From Escherichia phage Ec_MI-02: DNA of 64,000 bases. Shown here one piece after another: positions 7,847-43,987 of this stretch; position 1 is the stretch's first letter, and every line of letters begins with the position of its first letter. The notes below the pieces were generated by a model. The model made no database searches. It saw only the letters and a program-made list of their open reading frames with translations, and was not told the DNA's origin. The DNA is taken from sequence record OP856590.1. One strand, given 5' to 3'. The position numbers were made by a program, and so were the translations under genes.

Positions 7847-8059
7847 CTATTCCTTACTAAGAGCAGCATTCAGCTTATTAGTAATTTTATCCAGACGCTC
7901 ATTGAACTCACTAGAAGACAGTCCTTTTTCTGGAGAAATCAAACTAATCACGAAAAATATAGCAATAAAAGGAATAAGGAAAATAGCTCCAACTGCCATA
8001 AACAAAAAGAACGTTACAGTTGTAAGAAAATCAGCTAAACCTTTACGAAATTTATACAT
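7847..8059 (-). CDS. Small membrane protein
   Basis: 70 aa, ATG start, two hydrophobic helices (LTTVTFFLFMAVGAIFLIPFIAIFFVISLI). Confidence 0.5.
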   Translation of the reverse strand: MYKFRKGLADFLTTVTFFLFMAVGAIFLIPFIAIFFVISLISPEKGLSSSEFNERLDKITNKLNAALSKE

Positions 8060-8174
8060 ATTTTACCCTTAATTGATTAACCAAGCATTGATAAGCACTA
8101 AACTATATTGCGAATAAAATTCTGGACCAAAATGAAAAACCATATCATTTATAGTGTCCATAATATAATTCAAT

Positions 8175-8645
8175 TTAATCATGTTTCCACACCCCATCGG
8201 TATTTGACCAAAGTCGCTGATTATCTGATCCTCGCCACAACTTTTTGGTCGGAAGATTTTTCTCATACTTCCCATCAATAATAACATCAACATATTTAAG
8301 CATTTCTAGTTGTTTAATATCTTCAAATTTATATCCTGTCCACAACCAAATGCTTTTATTTGGATAAAGATTTTTTACTGTTTGAACAATGCAATGAATA
8401 ACATCTCGGTTATCAGGATAGAGAGGGTCTCCTCCAGTTATAGTTAATCCTTCTATATAATCATTATTCAAACATTTAATTAATTGTTCCAGCGTTTCAC
8501 CAGTGAATGGAACACCGTTTCTAGCATTCCATGTTGATTTATTATAACACCCTTCGCATTTATGCAAACAACCTGTAACGAAAAGAACAGTTCGGCACCC
8601 AGGACCATTAACAAAGCAACACGGATATATTCTGTCATAATTCAT
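8175..8645 (-). CDS. nrdG: Anaerobic ribonucleotide reductase activating protein (radical SAM)
   Basis: 156 aa; N-terminal MNYDRIYPCCFVNGPGCRTVLFVTGCLHKCEGCYN radical-SAM/Cys cluster; same length as T4 NrdG. Confidence 0.9.
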   Translation of the reverse strand: MNYDRIYPCCFVNGPGCRTVLFVTGCLHKCEGCYNKSTWNARNGVPFTGETLEQLIKCLNNDYIEGLTITGGDPLYPDNRDVIHCIVQTVKNLYPNKSIWLWTGYKFEDIKQLEMLKYVDVIIDGKYEKNLPTKKLWRGSDNQRLWSNTDGVWKHD

Positions 8646-9474
8646 TTATATATTTCCAATTATAGCCTTCAACACTTTTACGTTCGCCATTTAAACATTT
8701 TAAAATATTTCCTTTGCTAGAAATATTAAAATATTTTGCTGCGTCTGGTATATAATTAAATGTTTTTAAAAGAACACCATCTTTGTATGCGCCAAATAAA
8801 TTAAGAGTATATTTTTCTCGAAGACGCTGATGTTTCCTTTTCATAACCTCAGGATTTGCATACGCCAGCTTTAATGAATTTCTATGTTTTTCTTTTACTT
8901 CAGGTTTTTGCATTGCTAACTTAGTTAGCCTGGAAATTTTATTTCTAACTTTATCAGTTTTCATTGCATTTGACAAATTTAATAAAGTTTTATTTCTAAC
9001 TTCAGGTTTTTGCATTGCTAACTTAGTTAGTTCGCTATGTCTTTTTCTAAAATCGTCATCTTTCCATATATTTTTCGATAATTTTGACATAGAGCGGTGA
9101 AATAATTCCCTTTCTTTGGAATACAGTTTAAAAATTTCATCCAATTCATCAGTATTAAATCTATCAGTATTCGAGTTTATCATTCTATGAAAGGCATAAC
9201 ACATTTTACTATTACTTGTTTTAGCTAAATAGTAATGAGCCAATGCATGGTCATAATATGACAAATTAACAATATTCCATTTATCTGTTTTATATTCAGG
9301 AAATATAGATTTGGGAAGCACGTGATGTGCTTCCGTTTTCCCCTTTATTTTAGGATTATTATAATTTTTTATTATCAAATCAACATATGACAATAATAAA
9401 TCATTATTTTCTTCAAATATTAAAGTTAATTTATCATTCACAAAATCACAGGGATAAAATCTATCGTAATTCAT
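8635..9474 (-). mobile_element. HNH-family homing endonuclease (Mob-like), between nrdD and nrdG
   Basis: 279 aa; HNH core AHHVLPKSIFPEY...NIVNLSYYDHALAH; C-terminal duplicated motif LTKLAMQKPEV (x2) from a 35-bp direct DNA repeat; first 12 codons nearly identical to nrdG start. Confidence 0.8.
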
Positions 9475-11288
9475 TGGTGTTTAACCCTATGCATGATTTC
9501 TTTATTTTTTCCAAGATTAAATCCGCGTTCATTCGGATTTCCCAAATAACCACATGTTCTTCTTATTGTGTTCATCTTTTTAGGATCAGTTTCTCCACAA
9601 ATAGAACAAACAAACCCGTTTTCAGTAGGAGTCATTTCATGGGTACTTCCACACGTAAAACATTTATCTACTGGCATGTTAACACCAAAATAATCTAAAT
9701 GTTGTGCAGCATAATCCCATACAGCCTCAAGACCTTTTAGGTTATTTTTCATATCAGGAAGTTCAACATAAGAAATGTGACCACCTGTCGCAATGAAATG
9801 ATATGGTGCTTCGCGAGAAATCTTTTCAAACGGAGTGATATTTTCTTCTACTGAAACATGGAAACTGTTAGTGTACCATCCTTTATCAGTAACATCTTTT
9901 ACACTTCCATATTTTTCAGTATCAAGTTTACAGAAGCGATAACAAAGGTTTTCAGCAGGTGTAGAATACAAACTAAAAGCAAAACCGGTTCTTTCAGTCC
10001 ACTGCTTAAGACGAGCATTCATTTTAGTTAAAATTTCTTGTCCAATATCACGACCGACAAGAATATTCAATTCGTGAATACCAATGTATCCCAAAGACAC
10101 TGAACTTCTACCGTTTTTAAATAACTCAATTATATCATCATCGGGTTTAAGACGAACCCCGAATGCACCTTCTTGGTAAAGAATAGGAGCAACAGTCGCT
10201 TTAACTCCTTTTAAAGAATTAATTCTACACATCAAAGCTTCAAAGCATAAATCCATTCGCTCATTGAACAATTCGGCAAATTTTTGTTCATTGAACTGTG
10301 TTCCAATATAAGAATCTAACGCAATGCGAGGAAGATTCAGTGTTACAACACCAAGATTATTACGTCCATCAAGAATTTCATTACCAGTCGAATCTTTCCA
10401 TACGCTCAAGAAACTACGGCAACCCATTGGAGAAACAGGAATAGATGAACCGGTGATAGCTTTATTGTTCTTAGCTGAAATAATATCAGGATACATTCTT
10501 TTGCTTGCACATTCTAGAGCAAGCTGCTTAATATCATAGTTCGGATCGTCTTTATAAAGATTAACGCCTTCTTCAACAAACATAACAAGCTTAGGGAAAA
10601 TAGGAGTTATCCCATCGCGACCAAGACCTTTAATACGATTTTTCAGAATTGCTTTCTGAATCATTCGTTCAGTCCAGTCAGTTCCCGTACCAAATGTAAT
10701 TGTTACAAAAGGCGTTTGTCCGTTTGAACTAAAGAGAGTATTTACTTCATATTCATAAGCTTGGAATGCATCGTATACGTCTTTTTCTGTTTTAGATTGG
10801 GCATAATTCAACGCATCAGCGATTTGCCATTTTTCTGCGTCCTCAATATGTTTTGCATAGGTGCGTTTAACATAAGGAGAAAGTACTTTATCTACATTCG
10901 CAAAAGTCGTTCCACCGTATTGGTGAGAAGCAACCTGTGCAGTAATTTGTGCCATAATTGCAGTAGCGACGCCGATTGATTTAGGAGTTTCAATCTGCGC
11001 ATTACCGAGCTTAAATCCGTTCTCAAGCATTCCTTTTAAATCTACTAAACAGCAATTAGTAAATGGAAGAGCAGGGGAATAATCAATATCGTGGAAATGG
11101 ATAATTCCGCTTTCATGCGCTTTCATAATAAAAGACGGGACCATATTTTTGGCAATGTGTTTAGACACAATACCGGCCATAAGGTCCCGTTGAGTTGGAA
11201 AAACACGAGAATCTTTATTAGCATTCTCGTTCAAAAGGTCTTTATTAGTTTTATGAATCAATCCTTCAATTTCTTTTTCAATTGTCAT
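9471..11288 (-). CDS. nrdD: Anaerobic ribonucleoside-triphosphate reductase, uninterrupted (no intron)
   Basis: 605 aa continuous ORF, ATG start; C-terminal glycyl-radical region and Cys-rich tail (CFTCGSTHEMTPTENGFVCSICG...RRTCGYLG); position upstream of 49. Confidence 0.95.
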   Translation of the reverse strand: MTIEKEIEGLIHKTNKDLLNENANKDSRVFPTQRDLMAGIVSKHIAKNMVPSFIMKAHESGIIHFHDIDYSPALPFTNCCLVDLKGMLENGFKLGNAQIETPKSIGVATAIMAQITAQVASHQYGGTTFANVDKVLSPYVKRTYAKHIEDAEKWQIADALNYAQSKTEKDVYDAFQAYEYEVNTLFSSNGQTPFVTITFGTGTDWTERMIQKAILKNRIKGLGRDGITPIFPKLVMFVEEGVNLYKDDPNYDIKQLALECASKRMYPDIISAKNNKAITGSSIPVSPMGCRSFLSVWKDSTGNEILDGRNNLGVVTLNLPRIALDSYIGTQFNEQKFAELFNERMDLCFEALMCRINSLKGVKATVAPILYQEGAFGVRLKPDDDIIELFKNGRSSVSLGYIGIHELNILVGRDIGQEILTKMNARLKQWTERTGFAFSLYSTPAENLCYRFCKLDTEKYGSVKDVTDKGWYTNSFHVSVEENITPFEKISREAPYHFIATGGHISYVELPDMKNNLKGLEAVWDYAAQHLDYFGVNMPVDKCFTCGSTHEMTPTENGFVCSICGETDPKKMNTIRRTCGYLGNPNERGFNLGKNKEIMHRVKHQ

Positions 11289-11758
11289 TTTAAACTCTTT
11301 CTAAGCTGCTTCTTAAATGAAGCTATTAATTGTGTTTTAGTGTCAGATTCATTATATTCAAATCCTCTTTGAAGCATCTCAGCCATCATTTCCTCTTTTC
11401 CTAAACGAGAAAATTCCTTTGATTTATCTCCAACGAAGTTAGGGTGAATATTATTTTGGGTGTAATCGGATTTTAAATAAGTAAGTAAATTTTCTAACCA
11501 TTCAAGATAATCAACGCCTTGCCCCTTTAAGCCAGAACGATTAAATTTGTGTTTCATTTGACCTTCCGCTGCATTGCAGAGATTACAGAGCAATCCACGT
11601 ACCTTTCCTGCTTTTGGTCCATTTAATTCATGGTCATGGTCAAGGTGATTAGCTTGAACATCAGGATTTAGTTCTCGTTGGCAAATTAAGCATTTACCGT
11701 TTTGTGCGTTATAAAATTTCTGTTTTTCTTCTTTGTATAATTTGCCAGTCAATAACAT
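11285..11758 (-). CDS. 49: Endonuclease VII (Holliday junction resolvase)
   Basis: 157 aa; zinc-binding CLICQ...HLDHDHELNGPKAGKVRGLLCNLCN motif; matches T4 gp49 length and sequence as recalled. Confidence 0.95.
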   Translation of the reverse strand: MLLTGKLYKEEKQKFYNAQNGKCLICQRELNPDVQANHLDHDHELNGPKAGKVRGLLCNLCNAAEGQMKHKFNRSGLKGQGVDYLEWLENLLTYLKSDYTQNNIHPNFVGDKSKEFSRLGKEEMMAEMLQRGFEYNESDTKTQLIASFKKQLRKSLK

Positions 11759-42897: not shown

Positions 42898-43349
42898 TAT
42901 GCCCCCTTAAAGCCAAGAGCTCGTAATCCATCTTCTGTTAGAATTCTAAATTTTATTCCACGCTTTTCAGCTAAAGCTTGCGCTGCTTTCCATTTGTCAG
43001 TATTAACGGAATATGTATAAATTTCATTCATAAATCTTTTCTTCGCTGCAGTTGTTAGATGTGCTGGTTTAACTGGTGGTTGTGTTTCTTTTTTAGGTTT
43101 TATTTCAATAAAAAATTCTTGTCCAGAAGAATCTTTCATCCAAATATCCATGAAGTATCTACGTTTTTTCCCTTCTGCATTACAAAAATAAGGAATTACT
43201 GCTGTTTCACTACCCCATGCAATAATTTCTGGATTTTTATCTAACCATTCAAAAAAGAATTTTTCCCAATTTGATCTATACGTAATTTTTTTAGGGTCAC
43301 CTCTATATTTTGATATATTTTTAGGAACCCATTTTCCAGAATATGCCAT
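42897..43349 (-). CDS. 4: Head completion protein gp4
   Basis: 150 aa, ATG start; length and position match T4 gp4; minus-strand late promoter upstream. Confidence 0.9.
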
Positions 43350-43360
43350 TGGATTCTCCT

Positions 43361-43383
43361 TATAAATAGATAATATATTTATA
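43361..43383. promoter_or_regulatory. Divergent late promoter pair (gene 53 on plus, gene 4 on minus)
   Basis: Plus-strand TATAAATA at 43361..43368 and minus-strand TATAAATA (plus TATTTATA) at 43376..43383 in the 47-bp gap between the divergent genes 4 and 53. Confidence 0.6.
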
Positions 43384-43396
43384 AACAGGAGGGCCC

Positions 43397-43987
43397 ATGC
43401 TCTTTACATTTTTTGATCCGATTGAATATGCGGCCAAAACGGTGAATAAAAACGCGCCGACTATTCCTATGACAGATATTTTTAGAAACTATAAAGACTA
43501 TTTCAAACGTGCTCTTGCGGGATACCGCTTACGTACTTATTATATTAAAGGTTCACCACGCCCGGAAGAATTAGCAAATGCTATATATGGAAATCCGCAG
43601 CTGTATTGGGTTTTATTGATGTGTAATGATAATTATGATCCGTATTATGGATGGATTACTTCGCAAGAAGCTGCTTATCAAGCATCTATACAAAAATACA
43701 AAAACGTAGGTGGAGACCAAATAGTATATCATGTGAATGAAAACGGTGAAAAATTTTATAATTTAGTATCATATGATGATAATCCATATGTTTGGTATGA
43801 TAAAGGCGATAAAGCTAGAAAATATCCTCAATATGAAGGAGCACTTGCTGCGGTCGATACGTATGAAGCTGCTGTTCTTGAAAATGAAAAACTTCGTCAA
43901 ATAAAAATAATAGCAAAATCAGACATCAATTCATTTATGAACGACCTTATACGTATAATGGAGAAATCTTATGGAAATGATAAGTAA
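43397..43987 (+). CDS. 53: Baseplate wedge protein gp53
   Basis: 196 aa, GGAGG RBS; length and position match T4 gp53; 17-nt overlap with gene 5. Confidence 0.9.
   Translation: MLFTFFDPIEYAAKTVNKNAPTIPMTDIFRNYKDYFKRALAGYRLRTYYIKGSPRPEELANAIYGNPQLYWVLLMCNDNYDPYYGWITSQEAAYQASIQKYKNVGGDQIVYHVNENGEKFYNLVSYDDNPYVWYDKGDKARKYPQYEGALAAVDTYEAAVLENEKLRQIKIIAKSDINSFMNDLIRIMEKSYGNDK

Follow-up and report, generated by a model that had tools for sequence, protein, structure and literature searches.

The genes nrdD and nrdG of T4-like phages overlap and so offer no intergenic gap as an insertion site, and one question then is how a homing endonuclease gene can come to lie between them. The gene in question is a 279-aa open reading frame (ORF; 8635-9474, minus strand, ATG start) of Escherichia phage Ec_MI-02 (OP856590.1), of which a stretch of 64,000 nucleotides, here termed the window, was analysed. 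A first-pass annotation of the sequence had described an HNH homing endonuclease ORF between nrdD and nrdG that begins with a copy of the nrdG start, and such an ORF is present as described, free-standing and at the locus occupied in T4 by mobC. The answer that we regard as probable is that it belongs to the MobC family of free-standing HNH homing endonucleases, that it is borne on a cassette lodged within the 5' end of nrdG, where it uses the captured nrdG start as its own and supplies an imported, recoded 5' end to nrdG, and that it spreads by intron-less homing.

The structure on which this reading turns is a terminal repeat whose two copies, at 9435-9475 and 8606-8646, are 829 nt apart. 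Counted from the ATG, 30 of 39 nt are identical (77%; 31/40), as are 11 of the 13 amino acids encoded (MNYDRFYPCDFVN upstream versus MNYDRIYPCCFVN downstream), which confirms the duplication of the nrdG start over 12-13 codons noted at first pass. As a bare score, 30/39 only reaches the best value obtained when the region was shuffled 200 times under a first-order Markov model (mean 25.8, standard deviation 1.0); that the repeat is not due to chance follows from its in-frame position at two adjacent starts together with the comparative data below. Within the window, the endonuclease gene and nrdG are the only neighbouring ORFs with a common 5' end at the level of at least 27/39, and no other neighbouring pair with common 5' or 3' ends was found either there or in T4 1-48 kb. 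Since the latter region includes segF, segA and mobB, start capture is not a general property of the endonucleases of T4.

Which of the two copies is the resident one can be read from genomes with an empty site. The upstream copy, comprising codons 1-13 of the endonuclease gene (9436-9474, minus strand), agrees at 33-37 of 39 nt with the start of nrdG in 10 Tequatrovirus genomes whose site is empty, whereas the downstream start (8607-8645, minus strand) matches the same genomes at only 29-31. The window and six other Tequatrovirus carriers encode MNYDRFYPCDFVN in the first 39 nt of the endonuclease gene; in five Jiaodavirus carriers the endonuclease starts with MNFDRIYPSDFVN, and these codons are identical at 38-39 of 39 nt to the nrdG start of empty Jiaodavirus sites (L031, L040). 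All 12 carriers, in two genera, have the same arrangement, a lineage-type upstream copy, the MNYDRIYPCCFVN copy downstream and then lineage-type nrdG. Overall the downstream copy agrees with resident alleles at 28-31 of 39 nt, and identity between the window and the Jiaodavirus carriers is 90% over the first 39 nt of nrdG but 50-82% over the remainder of the gene. Beyond nt 39, the window nrdG shows 88-100% nucleotide identity to empty-site Tequatrovirus nrdG and is typical of its lineage from codon 14. On this comparison the first 39 nt of the endonuclease gene are to be read as the original, resident nrdG start and the present nrdG start as an import that travels with the element. Because the upstream copy is the resident nrdG start, both the ATGA overlap and the start codon were inherited from the resident genome. 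The first-pass proposal that the insertion had recreated this overlap is not upheld, and the empty sites of both genera reverse the direction of duplication that it implied.

The same alignments, together with the repeat spacing, define an 829-bp mobile cassette (8607-9435, minus strand) which contains the endonuclease body from codon 14 and the replacement nrdG 5' end. They place it inside nrdG after about codon 13 (+/-3 codons), fused in frame to the resident start, with boundaries that can be shifted by at most 9 nt because both copies end in TTTGTKAAT. At its upstream end the nrdD stop (TGA) and the endonuclease ATG overlap as ATGA (9471-9474, minus strand); this is the resident nrdD/nrdG junction, identical in empty-site genomes, where the ATG starts nrdG, and it is the upstream copy that gives the endonuclease both a start codon and a coupling to nrdD. 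At the downstream end the endonuclease stop (TGA, 8635-8637) and the nrdG ATG (8643-8645) form an 11-nt overlap (8635-8645, minus strand), a probable means of termination-reinitiation coupling for nrdG. The latter, encoding the 156-aa anaerobic ribonucleotide reductase (RNR) activase (8175-8645, minus strand; Pfam Fer4_12 E=3.6e-48, Radical_SAM E=1.3e-7), is intact, in agreement with the first-pass annotation. No group I intron or any other RNA family was matched by Rfam in 8000-11400, from which it follows that the endonuclease gene is free-standing.

The full insert occurs in 21 of 807 phage records matching the region, or in 31 records once Jiaodavirus is included, about 10 Klebsiella Jiaodavirus records holding an 85%-identical copy of the endonuclease; 776 records have an uninterrupted nrdD-nrdG junction. 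What is missing from the empty sites is exactly 829 bp, the distance that also separates the two repeat copies, and the nrdG start is present there only once. A duplicated start in relatives without the ORF, which would have spoken against an insertion, was not encountered: pSs-1 and 10 Tequatrovirus contigs from IMG/VR each have one copy, and relatives without the homing endonuclease gene (HEG) have an ATGA junction that is not interrupted. IMG/VR holds no copy of the endonuclease itself, its matches being nrdG starts of empty sites, which serve as controls. The insert measures 829 bp in six Tequatrovirus carriers, 830 bp in the frameshifted copy of phage BF15 and 826 bp in five Jiaodavirus carriers. 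The element is, in short, present or absent, with a precise empty site, among otherwise near-identical genomes.

The protein is identified by its family and its catalytic core. It matches the phrog_655 'homing endonuclease' family with E=1.1e-36 (T4 MobC matches the same family with 4e-43) and the phrog_12434 'HNH endonuclease' family with E=9e-15, and BLASTP against T4 MobC gives 38% identity over 60 aa of the HNH core (E=1e-7), the homology to T4 MobC being distant and limited to this core and the last ~10 residues. We assign it by these similarities to the MobC family of free-standing HNH homing endonucleases, as a distant relative of T4 MobC. The HNH core (residues 45-84, GKTEAHHVLPKS...WNIVNLSYYDHALAHYYL; 9223-9342, minus strand) aligns with the T4 MobC motif ELHHIIPRS...NLVFLTYKAHYTAHH and is predicted to form a beta-beta-alpha unit. 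In the AF2 model of residues 1-120 (pLDDT 85; 82-94 for 10-residue blocks over the core), strands at 47-51 and 68-72 and a helix at 73-84 form the beta-beta-alpha unit that bears the HNH residues. H50, H51, N67, H76 and H80 are invariant in alignments A1 and A2, and across eight homologues of which some are only 34-38% identical to the query. A putative DNA-binding module of NUMOD1 or I-HmuI-NUMOD type occupies residues 235-272 at the C-terminus (8659-8772, minus strand; sub-threshold Pfam similarity). The only in-frame ATG ahead of the HNH motif is the captured nrdG ATG, and paralogues at other loci (P0004 and P0005) have unrelated N-termini, homology starting only at about residue 14-15. The ORF is already known and annotated, as 'mobC/homing endonuclease' in about 32 GenBank phages, for example as 'mobC homing endonuclease' for a 97%-identical ORF of Yersinia phage PST, and is itself uncharacterised.

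Between Tequatrovirus and Jiaodavirus the endonuclease copies have diverged at synonymous sites by dS 0.90 and at nonsynonymous sites by dN 0.062, a dN/dS ratio of 0.07 for the complete ORF with its HNH part, which indicates that the endonuclease is under purifying selection. Since the layout is kept in two genera at dS 0.9, and since T4 mobC has it too, the design is old, contrary to the initial impression of a fresh footprint of homing.

The comparison with T4 MobC (NP_049689) is instructive in both directions. MobC likewise occupies the nrdD-nrdG locus, forms ATGA with the nrdD stop and an 11-nt overlap with the nrdG start, belongs to phrog_655, and has a homologous HNH core and a C-terminus that ends in GY.WKY..EL before the stop. 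It also shares the design of start capture combined with a recoded replacement nrdG start. T4 MobC starts with MNYDRIY and that of Klebsiella phage Wolf_ER13 with MNFDRIY, each following its own host nrdG at codon 3, and downstream of mobC both phages have an identical, synonymously recoded nrdG start (CCA TGC GAT TTC GTT AAC). The differences are that T4 MobC has 210 aa versus 279 in the window protein, with the 38% identity confined to about 60 aa; that the middle regions differ, duplicated 34-aa helical units belonging to the window protein; that the captured segment of T4 MobC is degenerate (7 codons plus remnants, SN-LVNS versus PCDFVNG after MNYDRIY) whereas that of the window is intact (13 codons); and that the recoding of the replacement nrdG start is synonymous in T4 mobC but non-synonymous (D10C) in the window element. 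The window gene is a second, distantly related endonuclease type at the T4 mobC locus. The mobC body of T4 (nt 42,926-43,516) is 100% identical in Wolf_ER13 (L056 1182-1814), where it has Jiaodavirus-type flanks, and all 32 records of the T4 type are at least 99% identical, which points to very recent transfer between genera.

T4 nrdG itself (NC_000866 42446-42916) is a mosaic, 88-100% identical to Klebsiella Jiaodavirus over nt 39-340, where it is 50-90% identical to other Tequatrovirus, and Tequatrovirus-like over nt 340-471, a pattern suggestive of co-conversion over ~300 nt beside mobC.

What distinguishes the imported nrdG start is a pair of substitutions, ATA at codon 6 (I6) and TGY-TGC at codons 9-10 (C10), which we refer to as the CC allele. 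It is present in 12 of 12 carriers, in the SegH phages RB3 and T6 and in one metagenome contig. In the HEG-free nrdG genes of IMG/VR, codon 10 specifies cysteine in 0 of 29 and aspartate in 29 of 29; the CC pattern as a whole has no match in IMG/VR, and its single metagenome match is a SegH phage. The cassette breaks the resident sequence of the carriers after codon 13, and the junction rebuilt downstream carries the CC allele, which is 8-11 of 39 nt removed from all resident alleles. The allele being common to SegH phages, it is probably a cleavage-resistant one. SegH is a GIY-YIG free-standing homing endonuclease of RB3 and T6 at the mobC locus (PMC2988022), and segH occurs in about 80-120 records. 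Similarly to the window element, SegH occupies the nrdD-nrdG junction flanked by the CC allele, starts on resident codons (ATGCATAGG, nrdD M-H-R) and carries recoded ends of the flanking genes. It differs in lying immediately ahead of the nrdG ATG, which it overlaps as ATGA, whereas the window element lies inside nrdG; in recoding the nrdD 3' end, which the window element leaves untouched; and in belonging to an unrelated catalytic family, with no significant protein similarity to the window endonuclease. A DNA-binding domain common to both was considered and, given this lack of significant similarity, is not supported. At the CC segment T6 and the carrier PST are identical at 39 of 39 nt, and over all of nrdG at 98-100%; it is probable, on the strength of the shared allele, that the allele also resists SegH.

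The recoding of nrdD in the SegH phages RB3 (AY262138, L053 1440-2365) and T6 (L054) extends over the last ~60 nt of the gene (VVPWNLGKMKEMVKRVKHA versus NERGFNLGKNKEIMHRVKHQ, each followed by the stop).

Taken together these observations suggest a scheme for how the element may operate. The enzyme would presumably cut an HEG-less nrdG near codons 10-14, and repair of the break from a carrier genome would copy the cassette in. Up to the break, the recipient's own sequence would be retained on either side, and this would explain why the upstream copy is lineage-specific and why nrdG is so again from codon 14. The 3' end of the cassette brings about 25 nt of leader and the 13 recoded codons with I6 and C10, which restores a complete nrdG, with the endonuclease stop falling 8 nt inside it; nrdG would then probably be translated by reinitiation after that stop. 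With the recoded CC copy at the downstream junction, insertion would not regenerate a site that the enzyme can cleave. In Jiaodavirus nrdD and nrdG are separated by an extra gene, so that the two genera have no homology upstream, and for transfer between genomes that differ in this upstream gene the captured 39 nt would be the only left-hand homology. More tentatively, and as a possibility to which we give somewhat less than an even chance, start capture combined with a recoded surrogate 5' end could be a distinct and reusable strategy for entering overlapping-gene operons by way of the downstream ORF. The captured codons would then act at once as translation start, coupling signal and sole left-hand homology arm between genera, and the CC allele, with its D10C change of an otherwise invariant NrdG residue, would be an immunity allele common to two unrelated nucleases, the HNH MobC type and the GIY-YIG SegH, that compete for the nrdG target.

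The extra Jiaodavirus gene (L004/L005 3298-3531) is a 77-aa ORF, absent from Tequatrovirus, which overlaps both nrdD and nrdG and in one record is termed MazG-like.

Other ways of arriving at such a structure have to be weighed. The endonuclease could have been inserted exactly at the nrdD/nrdG ATGA with a nrdG-like start of its own that re-formed the overlap, the downstream nrdG start being the untouched original. The ORF does begin with a nrdG-like sequence at the ATGA overlap, and as descriptions of the repeat this model and the favoured one are no more than circular permutations of each other. With two copies of the repeat, the insertion point is formally ambiguous. Against it stand the upstream copy, which follows the host lineage in both genera when set beside their empty sites, the downstream copy, which is unlike every resident allele and common to both genera, and the Jiaodavirus genomes, in which the upstream neighbour gene is a different one and the endonuclease nevertheless starts with Jiaodavirus nrdG codons; we consider the model improbable. 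It also tells against our reading of the upstream copy that this copy could have become lineage-type afterwards, by recombination with phages whose site is empty. That the 39-nt repeat is a target-site duplication, generated at each insertion by a transposition-like event or by replication slippage, would account for direct repeats that flank the insert at a spacing equal to its length. There is no transposase and there are no terminal inverted repeats. The two copies differ at 9 of 39 positions, and every carrier shows the same, allele-specific differences, for which reason we rejected this explanation and deem it scarcely credible; a duplication made anew at each target would not give a downstream copy that is conserved across genera beside an upstream copy that is lineage-specific.

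More serious is the alternative that the architecture is as described but that the protein has ceased to be a mobile endonuclease and, degenerate or domesticated, survives as a relic (a DNA-binding regulator, for instance) because translation of nrdG has come to depend on it, with the CC allele as a linked donor polymorphism. It draws on several of the points that weigh against an active homing endonuclease, which are as follows. The literature searched yielded no experiment on cleavage or homing by this protein or on its start site, and T4 MobC, which is not known to cleave, is listed with activity 'ND' and target 'unknown' in a 2010 review (PMC2988022). The profile searches suggested at first pass were successful with the PHROG homing and HNH families; the HNH models of Pfam and NCBIfam, in contrast, did not match the endonuclease, PF01844 matching one homologue only, weakly (E=0.01), and fold searches and PDB sequence and profile searches returned no significant nuclease match. 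The NUMOD models scored below the gathering cut-offs over residues 235-272 (PF22083, 21.1 bits against 27; PF07453, 17.4 bits against 22.8), and Pfam NUMOD3 did not match the window protein, one distant homologue reaching E=5e-5. Five members of alignment A1 do match (best E-values, PF22083 1.9e-7 and NUMOD1, PF07453, 6.2e-7), so that the NUMOD resemblance is probably real, as judged from the alignment members and not from the window sequence itself. Carriers are rare, with a frequency of about 3-4%, and one copy, that of BF15, is frameshifted. Shigella phage ESh24 (ON528734, UNVERIFIED; L055 660-790) has an uninterrupted junction and yet the CC allele; it may represent a resistant empty site left after loss of the endonuclease or after recombination, or an assembly artefact. 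Because the allele occurs with SegH and, in ESh24, without an endonuclease, it is possible that it is a hitch-hiking polymorphism. A relic could, moreover, be retained because the stop/start overlap would tie nrdG expression to an intact upstream ORF. It is difficult to reconcile with a relic, however, that the catalytic H/N/H residues are invariant among homologues only 36-38% identical to the query, that the low dN/dS extends over the HNH part, that the cassette is found in two genera with precise and identical boundaries, and that the T4-type mobC is identical in T4 and a Klebsiella phage, that is, recently transferred. We accordingly hold the relic to be unlikely, if the least so of these alternatives, and retain the active, start-capturing MobC-type endonuclease as the probable reading.

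Several further features of the locus bear on its evolution and annotation. Residues encoded at 8887-9073 (minus strand) are, according to the repeat analysis, a tandem duplication of a 34-aa helical, NUMOD3-like unit, in which exact 32-nt direct repeats at 8897-8928 and 8999-9030 encode LTKLAMQKPEV twice. The repeated peptide is as first reported; the stated length of 35 bp is not, the exact run being 32 nt. These runs lie inside an 85-nt unit, 73% identical, with a period of 102 nt (34 aa). A natural variant from a Logan assembly (P0003, 242 aa) lacks exactly one 34-aa unit, a deletion consistent with recombination between the 32-nt direct repeats, and repeat-mediated in-frame deletions of this kind have been described for other phage endonucleases (PMC10448857).

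The window as a whole is a Tequatrovirus (T4-like) segment with the minus-strand order gp49 endonuclease VII, nrdD, the 279-aa ORF, nrdG, 55.8, nrdH and, further on, gp55. The nrdD gene, for the anaerobic RNR large subunit (605 aa; 9471-11288, minus strand; assigned from the ORF list and from the nrdD annotation of homologous phage records), has no intron in the window, whereas the carriers PST, SA20RB and 235Ecol030PP have a nrdD group I intron with I-TevII. Since intron status varies among carriers of the same endonuclease, both mobile elements assort independently. A scan for promoters and terminators did no better than shuffled sequence. The paralogue P0005 (284 aa; T6 AP018814, L043 2369-3223), with 74% nucleotide identity in the HNH core and an N-terminus of its own, lies between 46.1 and gene 46 (SbcC-like) in T2, T6, RB51 and many others, where it is mostly annotated as hypothetical. 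In Escherichia phage BF15 (L047 1726-2567) the endonuclease frame shifts by +1 in an A-run after codon ~36, which reflects either decay of this copy or an error of sequencing, and the ORF annotated in GenBank is a shortened one. In UTI-K1 (L049 1503-2339) the endonuclease is labelled 'RNR class III activating protein', and in Mexia (L050 2407-2799) the annotated start of nrdG is an internal ATG, 78 nt further downstream; it appears that the duplicated start misleads annotation.

How does this element compare with known systems? Intron-less homing by free-standing phage endonucleases has been reviewed for SegF, SegG and MobE (PMC2988022). Common to these and to the window element are a promoter-less cassette in an existing operon that overlaps neighbouring ORFs, a sporadic occurrence among close relatives, flanking variants linked to the endonuclease gene, and a ribonucleotide reductase gene as a target. 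SegF, SegG and MobE lie between genes and cut a neighbouring gene, often at a distance (PMC2988022), whereas the window element lies within its target ORF, is fused in frame to the start of that ORF and supplies a surrogate 5' end. Endonuclease insertions inside genes are also on record, MobE in nrdA of Aeromonas phage Aeh1 and MobA in T4 gene 39/60 (PMC3045599, bioRxiv 10.1101/2022.08.31.505936), and these resemble the present case as HNH Mob-type insertions in coding sequence with accessory sequence that preserves the function of the host gene. There the host gene is split into two polypeptides; in the window, by contrast, it is kept whole by the duplicated, recoded 5' end, and the 13-codon orphan is reused as the N-terminus of the endonuclease. 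A further lead is provided by free-standing endonuclease ORFs of mitochondria, for example that in Allomyces atp6, which are fused in frame to part of a host gene and make it whole again through a foreign copy of the end that was displaced; that case differs in that the host gene is affected at its 3' end, in organelles of eukaryotes, and by endonucleases of other families. In the literature searched we found no mention of the start-capture and surrogate-end layout, or of an allele common to SegH.

The layout extends existing homing models and does not overturn them. It makes the gene a second, uncharacterised MobC endonuclease type at a classic T-even hotspot, one whose duplicated start already causes annotation errors, and it provides clear sequence evidence that such cassettes cross a genus boundary, from Tequatrovirus to Jiaodavirus, with a few codons of one-sided homology. 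The comparison pins the boundaries of the element to within 9 nt and predicts both a cut at nrdG codons ~10-14 and resistance of the CC allele, predictions which would turn the MobC-type entry of 'activity ND, target unknown' into a simple question for a cleavage assay.

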